Positions 4,083-52,952 of a stretch of 64,000 bases of DNA are shown in pieces. The notes beneath the pieces were generated by a model, which saw nothing but the letters and a program-made list of their open reading frames with translations, searched no databases and was not told the origin of the DNA. The translations under genes and the position numbers were made by a program. The stretch comes from Staphylococcus phage vB_SurM-PSU4, in the sequence record OL436245.1, one strand, 5' to 3'. Numbering within the stretch: the first letter of the stretch is position 1; each line of letters opens with the position of its first letter.

Positions 4083-6065
4083 ATGGCATTTGAATTTAAT
4101 AGCTTAACTGAAAAGCAATATTTATCTGATATGACTAAGGAAGTAAATAAGGTAGGAGAATACCTAAAGAATGAACTAACTAAAGAAGATGTAGAGACCG
4201 TAGATTCTCCTGACTTTGAAGATATTTTAAAATATATAAATGTAACAGGAAATTATTATGTAACAACCTCTAAAAACCAACCTAAAGATTCAAATTGGAA
4301 TGGTTTTGTTTTCTTTGAAAAGAGAAATAATAACTCCTACAAAATATATTTTAATCCTTATAATAATGAAAACTTATATTTAAGAACCTACCGTAATGGA
4401 GTACTATCTGATTGGAAAAAGTTTGTATTGGACGAAGAAACAAATAATTGGCAAAAATATAAATTTACCAATGAACAAGGTCAATATACTACACAAGAAG
4501 ATATAGATATTAGAGAATTAAATAATAGTAAAACAATATATGTTAAGAACTTAGTAGACCCTCCAAAACCTGAAATGAATGAAGGATGGTTAGAGACAAA
4601 AGTTCATGAGAATGGTAATACAAGTATCACAACATTCAATCCTGTTAATTCTACTACAACATATACAAAAATGCAAAAAAGAGCTAGGGAAGTACAAAAC
4701 CCTAACTTAATTAAAGATGCTTTATTTACAAAAATACCTCAGAGGTACACAGAAGAAACAGTAGATAAAGCTTGGAGCTCTCAAATAATTGGTGTATCAA
4801 GAGGCATAGATTTTGATACAGGAGTTAAATTTCAAGGTCAAAAAACAGTAGGTATTTCGGATACTACTTCATATAATCATCCATTAATAAGAAGTAATTA
4901 TTTAGAAGTAGGTAAAGATGTTAAAGTGGGAGACGAAATTACGTTCTCTTCTTACGTTATGGTTGATAATGTAGATGCTATGAAAGATAACTGGGTTTAT
5001 ATACAAATTGCTAAATATGATAGTATAAATTCAGACATAAATAATCAAATAGGTAGTGCTACAACGGTTAATGGAACTAATGCTATAGAAATAATTAAAC
5101 CAGGTGAGTGGGTAAGAATAACCAATACACAAACAGTTCCTTCAGGAGTTAAGTACATTACAGGTAACTTAAGAGGGAATTTAACTAGAACAGCCCCATC
5201 AAACAGTTGGACAGCTTATTTCGCACTACCTAAATTGGAAAAGGGAGATAAAGTTACCCCATTTATTACACATGTAGATGATAAGAAACAATTTGATGAA
5301 ATCTATACAAATTGGTTAGAAAACCCTGATGAACAATCTATATTAAATAACTACCCAACAGATATTAACAATGATAACTATTTCAAATATACGTTTTGGA
5401 AGAACGAAGTAGGAAATATGACTTTACAAGATTTAATACAAACACTACCTCAAGGTTTCCATACTTTTTACGCTCAAGGTGGTATAGAAGGGACTCCAAA
5501 AGGTAATTCTGTAAGAGGGACAGTTCAAGTAGATAATGATAATGGAGATACAAAATCAGGTCGTAAGTTTATTAATGCACAATTTACAGATTACGATGGG
5601 TTAAACTATAATTTGTATTACGATGATAATAGATTCAGTGAAGCAGACAGTCAAGAAGGGTGGTCTCCTTTAAGAAAGACAGAACAAGCAACATACTTGT
5701 GGGATGGTACCCTAGACTTAGGAGAAATAGGAGCTAAAGTTAAATTATCTGATAGTATACACAATTATGAGTTTTTAGATGTAACTTATTATACAAATGC
5801 AGCAGGGCATCTTGCTACTAGAAGAGTTAGAGTTTCTCCTGATTTCTCTGAATACTATTATATAAGAGACTTTAACTTAAGTAATAGTTCTACAGGAACA
5901 GGATTCGGTGCTTTCGAGGGCTATTTTATTGTATCTAATGATAATCCTATAGAGGCTGTATCTGGAATGTCTAAAAATTTAAGTGTTACAGATAAAAAAG
6001 TAAATAGATTTAATGAAAAAGGTGATATATCAATAAAACGTATAACAGGAATTAATACATTGTAG
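4083..6065 (+). CDS. Receptor-binding protein 1 / tail fibre (660 aa)
   Basis: Its N-terminus (MAFEFNSLTEKQYL...) is paralogous to that of the 466-aa ORF at 6493 (MAVEFNRITETDTFL...). The arrangement of a long RBP, a small gene and a shorter RBP matches the Kayvirus RBP locus. Confidence 0.75.
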   Translation: MAFEFNSLTEKQYLSDMTKEVNKVGEYLKNELTKEDVETVDSPDFEDILKYINVTGNYYVTTSKNQPKDSNWNGFVFFEKRNNNSYKIYFNPYNNENLYLRTYRNGVLSDWKKFVLDEETNNWQKYKFTNEQGQYTTQEDIDIRELNNSKTIYVKNLVDPPKPEMNEGWLETKVHENGNTSITTFNPVNSTTTYTKMQKRAREVQNPNLIKDALFTKIPQRYTEETVDKAWSSQIIGVSRGIDFDTGVKFQGQKTVGISDTTSYNHPLIRSNYLEVGKDVKVGDEITFSSYVMVDNVDAMKDNWVYIQIAKYDSINSDINNQIGSATTVNGTNAIEIIKPGEWVRITNTQTVPSGVKYITGNLRGNLTRTAPSNSWTAYFALPKLEKGDKVTPFITHVDDKKQFDEIYTNWLENPDEQSILNNYPTDINNDNYFKYTFWKNEVGNMTLQDLIQTLPQGFHTFYAQGGIEGTPKGNSVRGTVQVDNDNGDTKSGRKFINAQFTDYDGLNYNLYYDDNRFSEADSQEGWSPLRKTEQATYLWDGTLDLGEIGAKVKLSDSIHNYEFLDVTYYTNAAGHLATRRVRVSPDFSEYYYIRDFNLSNSSTGTGFGAFEGYFIVSNDNPIEAVSGMSKNLSVTDKKVNRFNEKGDISIKRITGINTL

Positions 6066-20142: not shown

Positions 20143-20454
20143 ATGGCAGTAATTGATATAGAAACAAAAGATTTTGATAATAAAACAAAAGAAGGGTTAA
20201 ACCTAGTTGATTTATGGGCACCTTGGTGTAGCGTATGTAAAATGGTTATGCCTTCTGTAGAAGCTATCGGTGAAGAATCTAATGACCTGGATGTTCTTAA
20301 AGTTAATATTGATGAAGAACCTGATGTATCTTCAAATCTTGGAGTTATGAGTATTCCTACATTGATACTATACAAAGATGGAGAAAAAGTAGATAGTATT
20401 AATGGTTTTGCACCTAAAGAAAAAATTGAGGAAATGATTGAAAAACATAAATAA
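20143..20454 (+). CDS. Thioredoxin (WCSVC active site)
   Basis: WAPWCSVCKM, and a cis-Pro region SIPTLILYKDG. Confidence 0.8.
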   Translation: MAVIDIETKDFDNKTKEGLNLVDLWAPWCSVCKMVMPSVEAIGEESNDLDVLKVNIDEEPDVSSNLGVMSIPTLILYKDGEKVDSINGFAPKEKIEEMIEKHK

Positions 20455-20470
20455 AAAAGGGGATATTTGA

Positions 20471-21820
20471 TTGATTACGCAAATTAAGAAACGTGACGGG
20501 TCTGTTGTGGAGTATGACCTAAATAAAATAACAAATGCTATCCTAAGAGCTAATACAGAAACGAATGAGTTCTTGGAAGATAATATCGATACTTTAGTAG
20601 AAGATGTAGATAGTCTATTAGAAGAAAAAGAAGAGACACTTACAGTAGAGTGTGTTCAAGATACAGTGGAAGAAGTATTGCTTGGTAGTAAGTATAAAGA
20701 TACTGCTAAGGCTTTTATTTTGTATAGAGACAAAAGAGATAGAGAACGTAGACGAGATATATTTAAACCAAGAAAAGAATTAAAACCTTATGAATACCCT
20801 GAATTACTAGAATATGCAGATGCTATTAGAAACAGTTATTGGATTCATACCGAATTTAATTATACAAGTGATATTCAAGACTTTAAACAAAATGTTAAAC
20901 CTCACGAACGAACTGCAATTAAAAATGCTATGTTAGCTATTGCACAAGTTGAAGTTGCTGTTAAAACATTTTGGGGTGACCTATATCATCGTATGCCTAA
21001 ATGGGAAACAGGTGCAGTTGGTGCAACGTTCTCAGAATCAGAAGTTAGACATGCTGATGCTTACTCTCACCTACTAGAATTGTTAGGATTAAATGAAGAA
21101 TTTAAACATATAGACGATATACCTGCATTAAGAGAGCGTGTAGATGAGCTTACTATGCACACTAAATTAAGTAAGAGTGAAGATAATAGAGACTATGTAC
21201 TATCAGTATTACTATTCTCACTATTTATTGAGCATGTATCATTATTCAGTCAATTCTTAATCATGATGAGTTTCAATAAACATAAGAACCTATTCAGAGG
21301 GTTATCTAATGCTATTGAGGCTACATCTAAAGAAGAACAAATTCATGGTCTATTTGGTATTGAAATTATTAATATCTTAAGAGGAGAACATCCTGAATGG
21401 TTCGATGGGGAAATGAAACGTACAGTATATGAAGCATGTGAACATTCATATGAAACAGAGAAAAAAGTTTTAGACTGGTTATATGAAGACGGTGAGTTAG
21501 AGTTCTTACCTAAGCGTACTGTAAAAGAATTTATTAAAAACAGATTAAACAATTCTTTAGAATCAATCGGATTTGAAAAATTATTTAAAATTGATGAAGA
21601 AGTGTTAGCAGAAACAGCATGGTTTGATGATGAAGTTATTAGTACGAAACTAACGGATTTCTTATCTAAACGTTCTGTTAACTATACTAAGTTTACAAAC
21701 ACAGTAACAGAAGATACACTATTCTCATCTAATTCAGAGTTTGAAGAAAATGAAGAAAAATTGTCTAAAGACAAGGTTAATGAGATTTTAAGAATGAGAA
21801 TGTTAACACTAGGTAATTAA
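20471..21820 (+). CDS. Ribonucleotide reductase beta (R2) subunit with an N-terminal ATP-cone
   Basis: Residues 1-95: ATP-cone (IKKRDGSVVEYDLNKI...YRDKRDRERRR). The rest is a ferritin-like R2 with E-x-x-H-x-x-x-Y (ESEVRHADAY) and a second E-x-x-H (EEQIHG). TTG start after a GGGGA RBS. Confidence 0.8.
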   Translation: MITQIKKRDGSVVEYDLNKITNAILRANTETNEFLEDNIDTLVEDVDSLLEEKEETLTVECVQDTVEEVLLGSKYKDTAKAFILYRDKRDRERRRDIFKPRKELKPYEYPELLEYADAIRNSYWIHTEFNYTSDIQDFKQNVKPHERTAIKNAMLAIAQVEVAVKTFWGDLYHRMPKWETGAVGATFSESEVRHADAYSHLLELLGLNEEFKHIDDIPALRERVDELTMHTKLSKSEDNRDYVLSVLLFSLFIEHVSLFSQFLIMMSFNKHKNLFRGLSNAIEATSKEEQIHGLFGIEIINILRGEHPEWFDGEMKRTVYEACEHSYETEKKVLDWLYEDGELEFLPKRTVKEFIKNRLNNSLESIGFEKLFKIDEEVLAETAWFDDEVISTKLTDFLSKRSVNYTKFTNTVTEDTLFSSNSEFEENEEKLSKDKVNEILRMRMLTLGN

Positions 21821-21836
21821 TGGAGGAGAATAGATA

Positions 21837-23519
21837 TTGGCAAACTTTGAATGGTTAAACACAGATTCACGAGTATTCTTAGAGAGAGGATACTTAAGTG
21901 AAGGTGAGACACCTGAACAACGAATTAAAGATATAGCAAATAAAGCTGAGGATATCTTAGGTATTGAAGGTTTTTCAGATAAATTTTATGACTACATGAG
22001 TAGAGGTTTTTACTCTTTATCAAGTCCTGTATGGGCTAACTTTGGTAAAGGTAAGGGATTAAGTATCAGCTGTTTTGGTAGTTATGTTGAAGATAACATC
22101 CCAAGTATTTTAAACTCTGCCAGTGAAGTAGGAATAATGAGTAAGTATGGTGGAGGTACTAGCGGTTACTTTGGTGAAATAAGACCTCGAGGTGCTAAAA
22201 TCACTGATAATGGAGAGACAAGTGGTTCTGTACATTTTATGAAATTATTTGAAACAGAAACAGATGTAGTATCTCAGGGAAACACACGTAGAGGACGTTT
22301 TAGTCCTTACTTACCTATTGACCACCCTGATATTGATGAATTTTTAGAAATAGGTACAGAAGGTAATCCAATCCAAAACATGACACATGCAGTATCTATT
22401 ACAGATGACTGGATGTTAGAGATGATTAATGGTGATAGAGAGAAACGTAGAATATGGTCTAAAGTACTTACACGTAGAACTCAACTAGGTTTCCCTTATA
22501 TATTCTTCCATACTAATGCTAATAAAAATACAGTAGATGTTTATAAAGATAAAGGATTAGTAATTAATAACTCAAACTTATGTTCAGAGATAATGTTACC
22601 TAATAAAGAAGATTGGTCATTTGTTTGTGACTTATCTAGTATGAACTTAGTTAAATATGAAGAATGGAAAGACACTGATGCAGTAGAAACAATGGTATAT
22701 TTCTTAGATGCAGTAATGAGTGAATTTATTTCAGACTTAGAGTCATTGAGAGATTCACAAGATAGAGAAGAAGTAGAAGCTTTTAAACTAATGGAACGTG
22801 CTTATAACTTTGCTAAAGAAAATCGTGCCTTAGGTTTAGGTGTGTTAGGTTGGCACTCATACTTACAATCTAAACTTATTCCTTTTGAAAGTGTAGAGGC
22901 AAGTAGATTAAATTCACAAATATTTGTTTTAATTAGAAAACGTGCATATAAAGCAAGTGAAGAGTTAGCAAACTTATTAGGAGAACCAGAAATTCTAAAA
23001 GGATACGGTAGACGTAACACAACGTTACTTGCTGTAGCTCCAACAACTTCAAGTTCATTCATTCTTGGACAAGTTTCTAAATCAATAGAACCTTTCATGA
23101 GTAACTACTATGTTGTTGATACTGCTAAAGTTAAAAAAACTATGATTAACCCTTATCTAAAAGAATTATTACAAGAAAAAGGTAAGGACACAAAAGAAGT
23201 GATGGAAAGTATTAGAGATAATGATGGTTCTGTTCAACACTTAGATTTCCTAAATCAAACAGAAAAAGAAGTATTTAAGACTTATGGGGAAATCAATCAA
23301 TATAATATTTTAGACCAAGCAGCAACAAGACAATATTATATTGACCAAGGACAATCTCTAAATATTATGGTTAATCCTACTAATGTTACTTCTGAAGAAT
23401 TAAATGAATTATACCTATTTGCTTGGGCTAATGGAATTAAATCATTATATTACCAACATGGTACTAATGCAGCACAACAATTCAACCTATCAAAACTATG
23501 TATTAATTGCGAAGCTTAA
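21837..23519 (+). CDS. Ribonucleotide reductase alpha (R1) catalytic subunit, short (560 aa), no ATP-cone
   Basis: Catalytic NSNLCSEIM motif (Cys/Glu), C-terminal redox pair CINC. TTG start after TGGAGGAG. Confidence 0.8.
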   Translation: MANFEWLNTDSRVFLERGYLSEGETPEQRIKDIANKAEDILGIEGFSDKFYDYMSRGFYSLSSPVWANFGKGKGLSISCFGSYVEDNIPSILNSASEVGIMSKYGGGTSGYFGEIRPRGAKITDNGETSGSVHFMKLFETETDVVSQGNTRRGRFSPYLPIDHPDIDEFLEIGTEGNPIQNMTHAVSITDDWMLEMINGDREKRRIWSKVLTRRTQLGFPYIFFHTNANKNTVDVYKDKGLVINNSNLCSEIMLPNKEDWSFVCDLSSMNLVKYEEWKDTDAVETMVYFLDAVMSEFISDLESLRDSQDREEVEAFKLMERAYNFAKENRALGLGVLGWHSYLQSKLIPFESVEASRLNSQIFVLIRKRAYKASEELANLLGEPEILKGYGRRNTTLLAVAPTTSSSFILGQVSKSIEPFMSNYYVVDTAKVKKTMINPYLKELLQEKGKDTKEVMESIRDNDGSVQHLDFLNQTEKEVFKTYGEINQYNILDQAATRQYYIDQGQSLNIMVNPTNVTSEELNELYLFAWANGIKSLYYQHGTNAAQQFNLSKLCINCEA

Positions 23520-23536
23520 CAATAAAGGAGATTATT

Positions 23537-23899
23537 ATGGAGCCTAAAAAGATTGAACAAGTAGAAAGTTTAGTAGAATTAGAAACTTTAGCTGGAACTA
23601 ATGATAAGTTATTAGTAATGATTAGTGAAGATAATTGTGGTTTTTGTTCTATGTTAGAGTTTGGTATTGGAAGTTATATAGATGCCTTACAATTAGATAT
23701 TCACTCAGTTAACTTAAATACAGACCAAGCTAAAGAAGGAAAAGAAACTGTAGAAAAGTATTTTGATATTAAAGAAGTACCTACACTATTAGGTTTTAAA
23801 GATGGAGAGCTAGTTTCTCAAAAAGAAATAAAAGAACCTACAGAAGGTATTAATAAAATGGATGCTTTAGTAAAAGACTTAGGAATTAGTTTAAGCTAA
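23537..23899 (+). CDS. Thioredoxin-fold protein (CGFC) directly downstream of the RNR alpha subunit
   Basis: EDNCGFCSML CxxC motif. ATG at 23537 follows AAAGGAG; the track's start at 23507 lies inside the upstream gene. Confidence 0.65.
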   Translation: MEPKKIEQVESLVELETLAGTNDKLLVMISEDNCGFCSMLEFGIGSYIDALQLDIHSVNLNTDQAKEGKETVEKYFDIKEVPTLLGFKDGELVSQKEIKEPTEGINKMDALVKDLGISLS

Positions 23900-23904
23900 T
23901 TATA

Positions 23905-23960
23905 TTTTGAATACACCACTACTTATGTTATAATATATGTAACAGGGTAGTGGTGTTTTT
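23905..23960 (+). promoter_or_regulatory. Hairpin terminator (CACCACTAC...GTAGTGGTG plus T6) overlapping a TTGAAT...TATAAT promoter
   Basis: TTGAATACACCACTACTTATGTTATAAT. Confidence 0.45.
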
Positions 23961-23987
23961 TAATATAAAATTAAAGGAGAATTAAAG

Positions 23988-24716
23988 TTGGGTAAAAATA
24001 AAACACTGACTATATATAATAGTGATAGGTACTTTAACATTCATACAAAGACAAAAGATGAATTCCAAGAGTACATAAAAGTAACTAGACTTAATGAAGA
24101 TGAAATAGAAAAAGAAATGAATGAATTAGAAAAGAAGTCTAAGAGATACAAAGCTAAGACAGATAAGAAGTACATGTTATTTAATGAACAGTATAATAAT
24201 GATAGGCTTATAGAAAAGATATGTTCACATAGTAGTGGGGTTACATTTTATACAGATACAGTTGTTCCTTACTATGTATTTAAACAATTATCTAATAATA
24301 AAAACTCTACTGTAGTTTATCAAATGAAAGAAGATTTCACAGATAAACAAATTGATAATATATCTTTAAGTTATATGGGTGTGAAAGTAGTTATTGATGT
24401 AGCTATTACTTTCCCTTATGTTAACCCCTATCTTATTATTAAAGGTCTATATAGTTTGAAGATGAGTGTAGATGAGATTCATTTATCATTTCCTAGACTA
24501 ACAAGTATCCAAGAAGACCAAGAAGAGTATTACTTCTATGATGGGGAAGGGTATGATGTTAAACCTGATTACAAATATGATTTTACAACTAAACTAAGAC
24601 TCCCATTATCGGTATGGAAAATGTATCTCTATATAATAACAAACACAGATAAAGACTACGAAGATGTAACTAAAATAATTACCAAAGTCAAAAAGGAGAA
24701 TAATATAACCTCATGA
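23988..24716 (+). CDS. Hypothetical protein (242 aa)
   Basis: TTG start after AAAGGAGAATTAAAG. Confidence 0.6.
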   Translation: MGKNKTLTIYNSDRYFNIHTKTKDEFQEYIKVTRLNEDEIEKEMNELEKKSKRYKAKTDKKYMLFNEQYNNDRLIEKICSHSSGVTFYTDTVVPYYVFKQLSNNKNSTVVYQMKEDFTDKQIDNISLSYMGVKVVIDVAITFPYVNPYLIIKGLYSLKMSVDEIHLSFPRLTSIQEDQEEYYFYDGEGYDVKPDYKYDFTTKLRLPLSVWKMYLYIITNTDKDYEDVTKIITKVKKENNITS

Positions 24717-25358: not shown

Positions 25359-28300
25359 TTGAAAGTTTTATTTTTATTAGATTTCATAAGGGTAGACCAT
25401 TACGACAATAATGGACATTGGAAATACTTGCAAACACAGAATGGTAAAACATTTAAACAAGTTATAGAATCAACAACAAGTTTAAGAAGAGAAGGACAAC
25501 GTAAAGATTATGTATTTGACTACGTATATAATCAAATTCCTCAACCTATTTACAATAACTATGGTAAGGTTATTAAATATGAAGACGTAAAGCTAACAGA
25601 AGCTAAACCTTTCATGGAAGAACTTAAAGCTAGAATAGAAGAAATCAAACCAGATATTATAGTACCTACAGGTAAGTTAGGTATTAAGATGTTATTGAAT
25701 GTAACTAAGTTAGGTTCTGTTAGAGGGGTTCCTAAAAAGGTAGATATAGGGGAGGTTTCTACTTGGGTATTACCGACATATAGTATTGAATATACAAATG
25801 TAAATAAAAACAGTGAAAGACAAGTCTTAGCTGATATGGATATATTAGAAAGATATGTACAAAACGGTGAAGAAGTCTTTAAACCTAAAGAAGTTAAATA
25901 TGAGTTTGTAGATAATATTGAAAGAGTAAGAGAAATATTTACTAAAGAAGTTAAGCAAGATGAGAATGATGGTGTAGATATAACTGCATGGGATTTAGAA
26001 ACCAATTCATTAAGACCAGACTTAGAAGGAAGTAAAGCTCTAGTAGCATCTCTAAGTTGGAAGAATGGTCAAGGAGTAACAATACCTTTATACAAATCAG
26101 ATTTTGAGTGGGCTAATGGACAACAAGATATTGATGAAGTGTTAAGTTTAATGAAAGAATGGTTAGCTGATAAAGAAGATGTAAAAGTTGGACACAACAT
26201 AGGTTATGATGAGAATTTCTTAATGTCTACAGAAAATATACAAGAGTATGAAAATGTAGAAGACACTAAAGTGGGTTGGTATTTAGCAGTATCTCAAGAA
26301 GCTAGTGAGTCTTTAAGACTTACAAATTTAGCTTATGAAGCCACTGATATGGGTGGGTATGATGAACCATTAGAAAACTTTAAAGTATGGTTTGTTACAA
26401 AACTATTAAAAGATTTAGATAAAGAAATGAAAGAGATACAAAAAGAAAATAAGAAGATAGCTAAAAAAGAATATGGTATTAAAGCAAATGAATATAAGAA
26501 GTGGATAGAAGACAATATCGATTTCACTAAAGATTTAGAAGAACAATACACTAACTTAAAGCTTAATCCAGAAGTTATAACAAAAGAACATATTAATGAC
26601 AAAGTATTAGAAGAATCTGAAGAATATGTGAACTTATCTGATAAAGGTAAAGTATATACCCTAGAAACAGCTATTAGTTTGATTAATAAATTCAGAGAAC
26701 AGAAGAATGTTGTTAATGAAGTAGATGGAGGTAAGTTTAGTTACGACTGGTTCCCTATAGAACTAATGCACCCTTATGCTAGTGGAGATGTTGATGTATG
26801 TCGAAGAATTTATTGTGAAGTATTAAGAAAGCTAGAGAAACAAGACAGACCTAAAGCTCTTAGACTTCTAAAGGAAGATTACCCAAGACTAACAAGAACA
26901 TTAGCTAGAATACAAAGCAATGGTTTCCATATGGATAAAGATTATATGAAAAAGAATGATGAAGCTTATAGAGAAGAGATGGAAAAAACTCATGAAGAAA
27001 TGAGAAAACATTGGTCAGTTATTGAGTTTGAAGAAATAAGATATAATCTCTTTGAAAAAGGTTTAGAAGAATTTGAAAACAAACCACCTAAAGATAGAGA
27101 CAAAGAGTTAGCTGAGTATAGAACGAAGTTTAAAGATGGTGGTTGGAAGTTTAGCCCAAGTTCAGGAGAACATAAAGGTGAAATATTATATGACATTTTA
27201 GGTATATCATTACCTTATGATAAACAGTATGTAAAAGATAAACCTTTCAATGCAAATATTCCTGAGAGTGAATTAACGTGGAAAGACTATAGAACAAATA
27301 AAGATGCTATAGACTATGCTTTAGATAAAGAAGAAAACGAAAGTACTAAAGAACTTTTAGAACTAATGCAATACTATGCAACTTTACAAACTAAGAGAAC
27401 TGGGTTTACTTATAAATTACCTAGAATTATAAATAAAGAAACAGGTAATTTACATCCTGGGTATAACATCACAGGAACAGAAACTTCTAGGTTAAGTAGT
27501 AGTAATCCTAACATCCAACAAATTCCTGCACATACAAGTGATGTAGATAAATTTGACTATAAACATCCTATTAAGTCTTCTTTTATTTCCAGACATAAGG
27601 ATGGTGTTATTCTTCAATTTGACTATTCAGCCCTAGAGATGCGTATTATGGGAGCTTACACAAAAGACGAACATATGCTTCAAGCTTTCTTAGACGGTGA
27701 GGATTTCCATAAATCTACTGCAAGTATTGTTTATGGTAAACCTATAAGTGAAGTAACTTCAGAAGAGAGACAAGCTACAAAAGCTGTAAACTTCGGTATT
27801 GCCTATGGACAATCTTCATCCACTCTAGCAAATAATTTAGGTATATCTAAAGAAGAAGGGGAAGAAATATTTAATAAATATTATGCTACTAAACCTAAGG
27901 TTAAAGACTCTATAGACTATGTTCATAATTTTGTTCAGGAAAATGGTTATGTAGAAACAATGAGCGGACATAGAAGATTTTTAGCAGATGCTCAAAGTAT
28001 GGATAAGAAAAAGAGAAGTGAAGCTTTGAGACAATCATATAATACAGTTATACAAGGGTCAGGGTCTTATTTAACAAATATGGCTTTAACCTATATAGAT
28101 GATTATATACAAGGAAAAAACATGAAAAGTGATATTGTAGCTACAGTACATGATAGTATCGTACTAGATTGTCCACCTGAAGAGGTTAGTATTATGTATA
28201 AAGTTGTAAAGACTATAATGGAGAATCTACCTTTTGATTTCTTAAAGGTAGAATACAAGGGAGAAAATATACAATACCCTATAGCATCTGATGCTGAAAT

Positions 28301-28499
28301 AGGTTTTAACTATAATGATGCTGTTGAATATGATGAAGAAGAAGTAAAAGAATTTAATTCTTTTAAAGGTTATATTAATTATTATTTATCTTTACAGAAA
28401 CTTAAAGATTACTTTGAATCTAAGAAGATTAATGAAGAGCAATATAAAGAAGCAATTAGGCAAGTGGAAGAACAGAAACATTTATATCAAGAAATGTAA
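25359..28499 (+). CDS. Family-A DNA polymerase with 3'-5' exonuclease, not interrupted by introns
   Basis: Exo I ITAWDLETNSL; pol motif A DYSALEMRIMGAY; motif B RQATKAVNFGIAYGQS; motif C VATVHDSIVLD. Continuous 1046-aa ORF. Confidence 0.9.
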   Translation: MKVLFLLDFIRVDHYDNNGHWKYLQTQNGKTFKQVIESTTSLRREGQRKDYVFDYVYNQIPQPIYNNYGKVIKYEDVKLTEAKPFMEELKARIEEIKPDIIVPTGKLGIKMLLNVTKLGSVRGVPKKVDIGEVSTWVLPTYSIEYTNVNKNSERQVLADMDILERYVQNGEEVFKPKEVKYEFVDNIERVREIFTKEVKQDENDGVDITAWDLETNSLRPDLEGSKALVASLSWKNGQGVTIPLYKSDFEWANGQQDIDEVLSLMKEWLADKEDVKVGHNIGYDENFLMSTENIQEYENVEDTKVGWYLAVSQEASESLRLTNLAYEATDMGGYDEPLENFKVWFVTKLLKDLDKEMKEIQKENKKIAKKEYGIKANEYKKWIEDNIDFTKDLEEQYTNLKLNPEVITKEHINDKVLEESEEYVNLSDKGKVYTLETAISLINKFREQKNVVNEVDGGKFSYDWFPIELMHPYASGDVDVCRRIYCEVLRKLEKQDRPKALRLLKEDYPRLTRTLARIQSNGFHMDKDYMKKNDEAYREEMEKTHEEMRKHWSVIEFEEIRYNLFEKGLEEFENKPPKDRDKELAEYRTKFKDGGWKFSPSSGEHKGEILYDILGISLPYDKQYVKDKPFNANIPESELTWKDYRTNKDAIDYALDKEENESTKELLELMQYYATLQTKRTGFTYKLPRIINKETGNLHPGYNITGTETSRLSSSNPNIQQIPAHTSDVDKFDYKHPIKSSFISRHKDGVILQFDYSALEMRIMGAYTKDEHMLQAFLDGEDFHKSTASIVYGKPISEVTSEERQATKAVNFGIAYGQSSSTLANNLGISKEEGEEIFNKYYATKPKVKDSIDYVHNFVQENGYVETMSGHRRFLADAQSMDKKKRSEALRQSYNTVIQGSGSYLTNMALTYIDDYIQGKNMKSDIVATVHDSIVLDCPPEEVSIMYKVVKTIMENLPFDFLKVEYKGENIQYPIASDAEIGFNYNDAVEYDEEEVKEFNSFKGYINYYLSLQKLKDYFESKKINEEQYKEAIRQVEEQKHLYQEM

Positions 28500-47915: not shown

Positions 47916-48235
47916 TAATTTCATACACATAATTGTATAGTTAATAGTTATATATTTTGAAAATGGTTTTCACTTTAGAAATAAAAAATGAAAATGATTT
48001 AGAAAAGTTTTCTATTGTATATAGTGTGTATGTACGATATATACAGTTAAAAAATATACTACTTAGTGTACTTTTTTGAAGTGAGAGCTATTATTAATTA
48101 AAAACTGTAAAAAGTTGATATATTAATACTGAAAACTGAAATACTAAACCCTTTAGTATCAAGGATTTAAGGGTCATATTTAACTATAATTTTCAATTCA
48201 AAAAGTTTAACTATTATATTAGGAGAGTAAGGATA

Positions 48236-52851: not shown

Positions 52852-52928
52852 GCCCTGTTAGCTCAATAGGATAGAGCCATGGTCTCCTAAACCATGTGAT
52901 TGTATAGGTTCAAGTCCTATACAGGGCA
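52852..52928 (+). tRNA. tRNA, anticodon CCU by manual folding (tRNA-Arg reading AGG)
   Basis: Acceptor GCCCTGT/ACAGGGC. D-arm GCTC-AATAGGATA-GAGC. Anticodon arm ATGGT-CTCCTAA-ACCAT (U33, A37). 8-nt variable loop. T-arm ATAGG-TTCAAGT-CCTAT. U8, A14, G18G19 and A21 are present. No encoded CCA. Confidence 0.8.
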
Positions 52929-52952
52929 CTAAAAATAAAAAGGAGTACTTAT

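Follow-up and report, generated by a model that had tools for sequence, protein, structure and literature searches.

Which kind of ribonucleotide reductase (RNR) carries its ATP-cone on the β subunit and leaves the catalytic α subunit without one, does so without any NrdI, and how would such an enzyme be regulated in a Staphylococcus phage? The question is raised by an operon of Staphylococcus phage vB_SurM-PSU4 (sequence record OL436245.1), located at positions 20143-23899 of the 64,000-nt stretch of DNA analysed here (the window), where trx1, nrdB, nrdA and trx2 follow one another in this order, all on the plus strand, 15-17 nt apart and each with a Shine-Dalgarno sequence ahead of it (Table 1). 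Domain architecture, family membership, conservation of ligand and interface residues, gene order and the presence or absence of NrdI and thioredoxin reductase (TrxB) were read directly from the DNA and its products. We consider it very likely that the locus is a phage class Id RNR operon of the NrdAi/NrdBi subclass, made up of trx-nrdB-nrdA and a backbone thioredoxin-like gene and working as proposed below, because both β and α fall with class Id structures, the diagnostic residues are kept, and the models of classes Ia and Ib fail. The arrangement of a cone on β is not new, as it belongs to a known and characterised subclass of which the PSU4 locus is a further member; NrdAi/NrdBi has been reported from "viruses and bacteria", and the β-borne cone was described and tested in bacteria in 2018. 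The initial annotation had presented regulation through a cone on β as unusual; the mechanism it expected has been demonstrated for a 60%-identical homologue (PMC5794259), but the subclass is known and is abundant in viral contigs. The observation itself is confirmed, while the interpretation first placed on it is partly supported.

The 449-aa NrdB begins with an ATP-cone, as had been proposed, since residues 4-91 match PF03477 with an E value of 6.1e-20 and 72 bits against a gathering score of 25.8, covering 87 of the 88 profile positions, and residues 102-375 match PF00268 (E = 5e-56). Profile searches of both subunits thus place the cone and the R2 domain on β and a barrel without cone on α, where PF02867 matches at E = 5e-92 and the PF03477 search of the 560-aa NrdA gave no ATP-cone match. 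Among solved structures, NrdB matched 5OLK (E = 4e-158), 6SF4 (2e-141), 8DQ3 (6e-117) and 6CWO (5.5e-95), all of them class Id β, after which came a lone match at 9e-22 and a remainder at 1e-9 or weaker. The alignment with NrdB of Leeuwenhoekiella blandensis (PDB 5OLK) extends over residues 2-418, cone included, with identities of 60% overall, 44% in the cone and 65% in the core.

The residues of NrdB were mapped onto the L. blandensis numbering of PMC5794259. The metal ligands E161, E191, H194, E254, E289 and H292 correspond to E170, E200, H203, E263, E298 and H301, respectively, with a Glu as the first ligand, while K165 (in VAVKT), W168, Y198 and T285 correspond to K174, W177, Y207 and T294. 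A first ligand of Glu and a distorted first helix with Lys174 turned toward the metals are traits of class Id β, Trp177 is conserved throughout NrdBi, and Tyr207 is kept off the metal by Thr294 (PMC5794259). The initial annotation had read E191, H194 and Y198 as the E-x-x-H-x-x-x-Y radical site of an R2 protein; the R2 domain and the motif are present, but the tyrosine is not the radical carrier in class Id. At the interface between cones, the hydrophobic L. blandensis residues M80, I92 and I93 are represented by L71, I83 and L84, which are conservative substitutions and not identities, whereas the charged residues D73, E76, K89 and R95 are found as D64, E67, K80 and R86. In L. blandensis, D73 and D/E76 form salt bridges with K89, and D73 forms an internal one with R95 (PMC5794259). 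Across 83 homologues the cone residues K7, R8, K19, Y85, R86 and R93 are invariant, and so are N404, Y405 and F418 of the α-binding tail, Y405 being at the position of the radical-transfer Tyr. This tail is the counterpart, in the alignments, of the final residues of 5OLK and 6SF4, both ending in …DDLF, and the AlphaFold2 model of NrdB has a predicted local distance difference test (pLDDT) score below 50 over residues 391-422, the disorder expected of an α-binding tail.

Most relatives of PSU4 in GenBank (H1, H6, H12, H15 and others) bear the label 'ribonucleotide reductase of class Ia (aerobic) alpha/beta subunit', whereas the genes of SA11 are annotated as hypothetical proteins. Though this label and the tyrosine of the ExxHxxxY motif would speak for a conventional class Ia (diferric-tyrosyl) enzyme, such a reading is highly improbable: the class Ia equivalog models score far under their cut-offs (NF006578, 77.6 against 813 for α; NF006576, 27 against 346 for β), α lacks a cone, NrdB has Glu as its first metal ligand together with the bulge Lys and the Trp of class Id, and the nearest solved structures are class Id for both subunits. 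By every test applied here, the relatives labelled class Ia are class Id.

The catalytic subunit tells the same story of family membership. NrdA scores 738.1 bits with TIGR02510 (cut-off 602.25), and its best solved-structure matches are class Id α, 6DQX with E = 2.9e-212 and 6DQW with E = 1.6e-183, the next best being at 6e-47. It contains only five cysteines (79, 249, 264, 555 and 558), which are the five functional cysteines of class I α, and carries N-x-C-x-E within NSNLCSEI (245-252), a YY pair at 538-539 and a C-terminal CINCEA, so that the initial description of a 560-aa protein with NLCSEI and a C-terminal CxxC pair stands with both motifs at the sites given. The motif C-x-x-C-E-[AG] closes all 12 distinct NrdAi C-termini listed, which represent 57 of the 65 full-length NrdAi surveyed. 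The median length of NrdAi is 564 aa, and cones on β are nearly confined to NrdAi-clade operons in which β precedes α (PMC9669993), the order also found here, with nrdB 16 nt upstream of nrdA.

Many other Staphylococcus phages, including Kayvirus, hold nrdI-nrdE-nrdF in the same slot, and a class Ib (NrdEF) system with its NrdI elsewhere in the genome was weighed for this reason. NrdA, however, scores 148 against a cut-off of 750 with the NrdE equivalog TIGR04170, and NrdB 57 against 355 with the NrdF equivalog TIGR04171. Kayvirus NrdI, NrdE and NrdF and Escherichia coli NrdH, NrdI and NrdE were used as tblastn queries; the NrdE queries matched just the window NrdA at 23% identity, and neither the window nor the 144-kb genome of the closest relative, vB_SsapH-Golestan101-M (Baoshanvirus), gave a match to NrdI, NrdF or NrdH. 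At the level of sequence comparison the class Ib reading is already refuted by the equivalog scores and tblastn, which leaves it with next to no probability, and an NrdI elsewhere in the genome would bear on the question of the activase alone. The absence of NrdI had been noted initially and holds, but it is not a peculiarity of PSU4, since class Id needs none.

A NrdI-family flavodoxin gene (PF07972) was nevertheless found in one phage-like contig (L013, positions 5633-6046; Logan SRR32478201_10858), about 1 kb upstream of a cone-NrdBi/NrdAi pair, although the class Id literature knows no flavodoxin-like activase for the class. An NrdI-type flavodoxin may serve class Id β as superoxide source in some phages of this lineage, which we regard as less likely than the functional reading of the β extension given below. 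As a general partner of phage class Id, NrdI was rejected, as a hidden Markov model search found it in only 1 of 85 loci, namely this one.

The mechanism of NrdAi/NrdBi has been established experimentally for L. blandensis and Facklamia ignava (PMC5794259, PMC6187632, PMC6754362, PMC8350387). In L. blandensis, dATP drives β into inactive tetramers with two dATP bound per cone (PMC5794259), and the class Id oxidant is held on a Mn2(IV,III) centre, with no tyrosyl radical seen (PMC6754362); the cofactor is assembled from superoxide or H2O2 without a flavodoxin, and NrdI is not needed. For the PSU4 enzyme we take the metal identity, the dATP-driven tetramerisation and the role of Trx1 as reductant from these characterised homologues by analogy. 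NrdA, as α2, would reduce nucleoside diphosphates via a thiyl radical on C249, with C79 and C264 giving the electrons and being re-reduced by the mobile C-terminal pair C555/C558. This pair would in turn be reduced by the phage Trx1, possibly also by Trx2 or a host thioredoxin, and Trx1 would be recycled by host thioredoxin reductase and NADPH. NrdB, as β2, would keep its oxidising equivalent on Mn2(IV,III) and not on Tyr198; Mn(II) and a reduced oxygen species would go into the assembly of this centre, which would not involve NrdI. The cone on β would be the master switch: with ATP, the β dimer would enter an active α2β2 complex, whereas with dATP the cones would pair via their last two helices to give β4 and then α2β4 or α4β4, in which radical transfer would be blocked.

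A comparison with named systems places the locus further. The L. blandensis NrdAi/NrdBi (PDB 5OLK and 6SF4; PMC5794259, PMC6754362, PMC8350387) shares with PSU4 the N-terminal cone on β, the short cone-less α, the β→α order, the C-terminal CxxCEA of α and the lack of NrdI, as well as identical metal ligands, bulge Lys, Trp, Tyr and Thr and a cone-cone interface that is conserved or conservatively substituted. In contrast, L. blandensis is a flavobacterium and PSU4 a phage, about 31 extra residues extend the PSU4 β, so that …DTLF is internal there while …DDLF is terminal in L. blandensis, and a trx gene lies directly upstream. The Grx::ATP-cone::NrdBi of F. ignava is likewise a class Id of Bacillota lineage with a cone on β and a redoxin physically linked to the RNR, and the enzyme has a Mn2(IV,III) cofactor and dATP-induced β tetramers (PMC6187632). 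However, its redoxin is a glutaredoxin fused to β, whereas PSU4 has a separate thioredoxin gene 16 nt upstream, and membership in the F. ignava-type fusion family was ruled out (NF009398, 80 bits against a cut-off of 649). Staphylococcal hosts are glutathione-free, which a separate thioredoxin in place of a glutaredoxin fits.

The class Id enzymes from Flavobacterium johnsoniae and from Actinobacillus ureae (6CWO/6CWP/6CWQ, 6DQW, 6DQX) belong to the same α and β families and have the same minimal α, with E values of 1e-95 for β and 1e-183 to 1e-212 for α; their β chains of 307-344 aa are too short for a cone and presumably work without the cone switch. The class Ib cassette of Kayvirus (IME-SA118, phage K) occupies the same slot between a resolvase-like gene and the trx-like, IHF and polA genes, is also followed by a thioredoxin-fold 'oxidoreductase' and also encodes a Mn-dependent aerobic RNR with a cone-less α. 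Unlike PSU4, it belongs to another subclass (23% α identity and no detectable β match), needs NrdI and has no ATP-cone.

The initial annotation saw two small CxxC proteins flanking the RNR pair, which is borne out as both pass PF00085, and took them for two dedicated reductants of a self-contained reduction system. Trx1 matches PF00085 at E = 8.7e-24 and TIGR01068 with 102.1 bits (cut-off 96.8), has thioredoxins as its best solved-structure matches (E of about 1e-29) and resembles bacterial TrxA. Its CxxC lies at the start of helix 1 in the motif WCSVC, in place of the canonical WCGPC, while its relatives have WCGSC or WCGPC. Baoshanvirus and Sciuriunavirus have the trx1 gene, whereas in Silviavirus SA11 and in Kayvirus it is missing from this position. 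A trx gene is also found directly upstream of a cone-bearing nrdB in several unrelated viral contigs (L019-L022 and L032), which makes Trx1 a plausible dedicated reductant, and by analogy it is the probable reductant of the C-terminal cysteine pair of NrdA. Only Trx1 looks associated with the cassette.

Trx2, with the motif CGFC, just passes PF00085 (26.8 bits against 23.5) and shows a weak match to PF20207; its AlphaFold2 model from four sequences had a mean pLDDT of 45, too low for use. A profile of its family searched against PDB sequences retrieved about 105 thioredoxin chains over the whole domain, with a best E value of 4.5e-8. Within the family C34, P82 (the cis-Pro position) and G90 are invariant and the second Cys is variable. 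Trx2 is homologous to the Kayvirus 'oxidoreductase' encoded after nrdF (36% identity, E = 3e-15), and its orthologues have CGKC in Kayvirus, CAKC in Silviavirus and CAKS in Sciuriunavirus (UHP46, L002 6681-6992). Since the second Cys is a Ser in Sciuriunavirus, a dithiol mechanism is not conserved in this backbone protein. Under either RNR class, Ib or Id, the orthologues stay beside the IHF and polA genes; trx2 is a backbone gene common with class Ib Twortvirinae, and its role as RNR reductant is uncertain. Of the two dedicated reductants first proposed, Trx1 remains plausible and Trx2 is better described as a backbone gene.

Thioredoxin has a precedent as polymerase partner in T7 gp5 with E. 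coli thioredoxin, and the thioredoxin-fold proteins, Trx2 above all, might accordingly not be RNR reductants but serve a redox-independent role in replication, for example as accessory or processivity partner of the PolA-type polymerase. The retention of Trx2 orthologues by the IHF and polA genes under either RNR class, the Ser at the second active-site position in Sciuriunavirus and the class Id RNR of Silviavirus without a Trx1 at that position would agree with this. We nonetheless hold it to be unlikely, as the first Cys and the cis-Pro position of Trx2 are invariant, many unrelated phage contigs have a Trx or Grx gene in the vicinity of class Id nrd genes (directly upstream in those mentioned above), α retains a C-terminal CxxC that requires a redoxin, and the polymerase binding itself is a supposition by analogy. 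Under the preferred class Id reading, with Trx1 as probable reductant, the electrons must come from host TrxB and NADPH, because a search with E. coli TrxB found no thioredoxin reductase in the window or in the complete Golestan101-M genome; the system is thus not self-contained, contrary to what had been suggested.

A feature that departs from the model enzymes was observed at the end of NrdB, which runs 31 residues (419-449) beyond …TEDTLF, the point at which many homologues and the class Id β chains of known structure stop (…DDLF). In the extension an acidic linker, SSNSEFEENEEKLS, precedes a basic amphipathic helix, KDKVNEILRMRMLTL (also given as KDKVNEILRMRML), and AlphaFold2 shows an isolated amphipathic helix at residues 433-447 with modest confidence (pLDDT of about 55-65). 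Of the 83 best homologues, 54 conserve it, the most distant of them at 61% identity; the consensus reads S-P-x-S-[ED]-[FIL]-E, then an acidic linker that varies, then K-x-x-V-N-x-x-L-R-M-R-M-L. A tree built from residues 1-418 alone separates cleanly the sequences with and without the extension, which fits one gain or one loss. The members with the extension whose neighbourhood was inspected are all phage or prophage, including the chromosomal copy of 'Nosocomiicoccus ampullae', and an Erysipelothrix protein without it belongs to an ordinary cellular nrdB-nrdA pair. As a rule, however, 'extension = phage, no extension = cellular' fails, since most IMG/VR viral contigs lack the extension.

In α, the positions that tell the two clades apart form clusters at 407-437 and 520-552, of which the second spans the helix into the YY pair. 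This hints at co-adaptation with the extension and no more than that, since divergence of the clades could by itself give the same pattern. The β tail alone (51 aa), searched against a representative library of 1.84 billion proteins, gave three weak matches, two to short fragments (via their C-termini) and one to a repetitive 2,225-aa protein; the search is silent on distribution because proteins with and without the extension share the 50% clusters of that library. No description of the β extension was found in the open-access literature searched. We tentatively suggest, as a possibility that is on balance not probable, that the extension has a so far undescribed function in a class Id lineage restricted to phages, altering α-β association or switching relative to the L. 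blandensis model; it might act as a second anchor on α, as a mask of the α-binding peptide or as a docking site for the phage thioredoxin. It offers a small testable lead on α-β docking in a minimal class I RNR.

Several points weigh against the class Id operon working as proposed. The biochemically characterised members (L. blandensis and F. ignava) are bacterial, not phage, enzymes, the NrdB cone is just 44% identical to that of L. blandensis, and the cone of F. ignava shows that ATP stoichiometry can differ within the subclass (PMC6187632). The residue-by-residue comparison with the L. blandensis cone covered its interface residues, those that bind the two dATP being listed in a figure of PMC5794259, the C-terminal extension could alter α-β docking or regulation relative to the model enzymes, and with WCSVC and not WCGPC the role of Trx1 as reductant is putative. 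In addition, Golestan101-M, the closest relative, lacks 469 codons of nrdA, and the enzyme may be dispensable, at least in culture.

Another idea is that the β cone of the phage clade is no longer a dATP off-switch but a relic or an ATP-only activator, its regulation having been taken over or modified by the extension. The extension is indeed conserved and clade-specific, the clade-separating α positions lie next to the YY pathway residues, and cones behave differently in L. blandensis and F. ignava (PMC6187632). On the other side, the cone scores well over the Pfam threshold, its phosphate-binding K-R pair, K19 and the residues of the last helix are invariant, the interface residues are conserved, and the apparent exchange of a cone between lineages (P0050, described below) suggests a functional module. 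A lost off-switch is thus quite improbable, and a class Id enzyme switched by dATP through its β cone is the reading that we retain.

The distribution of the cassette was surveyed in GenBank and IMG/VR. It was found in 63 GenBank phage records, comprising 61 named Staphylococcus phage, one Mammaliicoccus phage and one labelled Silviavirus, while 322 Staphylococcus phage records contain NrdI. At least 581 IMG/VR contigs encode relatives. Among 85 surveyed loci, 79 have the cone and 83 have an NrdA gene, mostly directly adjacent. The nrdB of the window is 100% identical to its counterpart in IMG/VR UViG_3300010165_000001, and Golestan101-M is about 95% identical across the operon and 86-95% across the window. 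The inspected carriers belong to Silviavirus, Sciuriunavirus and Baoshanvirus; the initial view that class Ib is normal for Staphylococcus myoviruses is right for some groups such as Kayvirus but does not extend to all of them. The genes flanking the slot in Kayvirus are 55-62% identical to those of the window and the slot itself holds nrdI-nrdE-nrdF, which points to a cassette swap within a conserved Twortvirinae replication module.

Class Id was not found described for Staphylococcus phages in the open-access literature searched, and the main value of the analysis is corrective, as dozens of Staphylococcus and Mammaliicoccus phage genomes mislabel class Id as "class Ia". Twortvirinae of therapeutic type have two interchangeable RNR cassettes at one locus, Ib with NrdI or Id with a cone on β, and the alternation lets one see, as in a natural experiment, what advantage feedback control by dATP and freedom from NrdI bring to a phage. 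Current views of RNR regulation are unaffected.

The coordinates of the operon and its features are collected in Table 1. A resolvase-like gene upstream ends 15 nt before trx1. For trx2, the real start is the ATG at 23537, with AAGGAG 7 nt upstream, giving the 120-aa product, in line with the coordinate of the initial annotation. Right after trx2, a hairpin with a U-run has a minimum free energy of -24.5 kcal/mol (z = -6.2; none of 200 shuffles folds as well) and is the probable intrinsic terminator of the operon; a terminator scan missed it because its loop limit was too short, and direct folding recovered it.

Table 1. Positions of the class Id RNR operon and its features in the vB_SurM-PSU4 window
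Feature	Position (nt)	Strand	Details
trx1	20143..20454	+	103 aa, active site WCSVC, ribosome-binding site AAGGAG
nrdB	20471-21820	+	449 aa, TTG start, ribosome-binding site AAGGGG
nrdB codons 1-95, N-terminal ATP-cone (allosteric on/off domain)	20471..20755	+	PF03477
nrdB codons 102-375, ferritin-like metal-binding core of class Id β (NrdBi)	20774..21595	+	PF00268
nrdB codons 391-418, canonical disordered α-binding tail (…RSVNYTKF…TEDTLF)	21641..21724	+	alignment to 5OLK/6SF4 ends
nrdB codons 419-449, conserved C-terminal extension	21725..21817	+	alignment, 54/83 homologues
nrdA, cone-less class Id catalytic subunit (NrdAi)	21837..23519	+	560 aa, TTG start, GGAGGAG site
nrdA active-site NSNLCSEI, codons 245-252	22569-22592	+	
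nrdA C-terminal redox pair C555/C558	23499-23510	+	
trx2, divergent thioredoxin-fold protein	23537..23899	+	120 aa, CGFC
Hairpin and U-run, probable intrinsic terminator closing the operon	23913..23962	+	folding

Mobile elements repeatedly target this RNR in the relatives, though the nrd genes of the window are uninterrupted by insertions. A 776-aa protein (P0001), near-identical to the window NrdB, carries an intein of about 327 aa in the E-x-x-H metal-ligand motif, at ESE/VRH (FSESE/C…N/CRHADAY, with the slashes at the intein borders), the insertion point corresponding to about 21043-21048 of the window, and two further proteins of 770 aa (P0092) and 750 aa (P0101) may carry a similar intein. 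GIY-YIG or HNH homing-endonuclease insertions interrupt nrdA in SA11, two metagenomic phages and the N. ampullae prophage; among the interrupted relatives (L003 5129-5958, L009 8112-9908, L011 and L012), the break in L003, L009 and L012 falls at NSNLCSEI (window 22569-22592). In Golestan101-M (L006, about 48025-48028), 1,407 nt of nrdA are absent relative to window 21965-23371, that is, 469 codons in frame, leaving a 91-aa remnant, and this gap is either a real loss, with the RNR dispensable in culture, or an assembly artefact. The 420-aa protein P0050, which has no extension and comes from a contig of up to 105 kb, combines a cone 96.5% identical to a Sciuriunavirus cone with a core that is 66.5% identical, and this mismatch points to recombinational exchange of the cone between lineages.

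Further observations were made around the operon. A promoter-like TTGAAT-16-TATAAT with a TG extension lies at 23907-23934 and overlaps the 5′ arm and loop of the hairpin after trx2, so that a terminator/promoter junction may precede the next gene at 23988. Located 1.4 kb downstream, at 25359-28499, a single intact open reading frame of 1046 aa encodes the PolA-type DNA polymerase, whereas that of Golestan101-M (L001 9800-14351) is annotated in pieces, split by HNH and HTH homing-endonuclease genes. A tRNA-Arg (CCT) at 52852-52929 is the sole tRNA gene of the 64-kb window.

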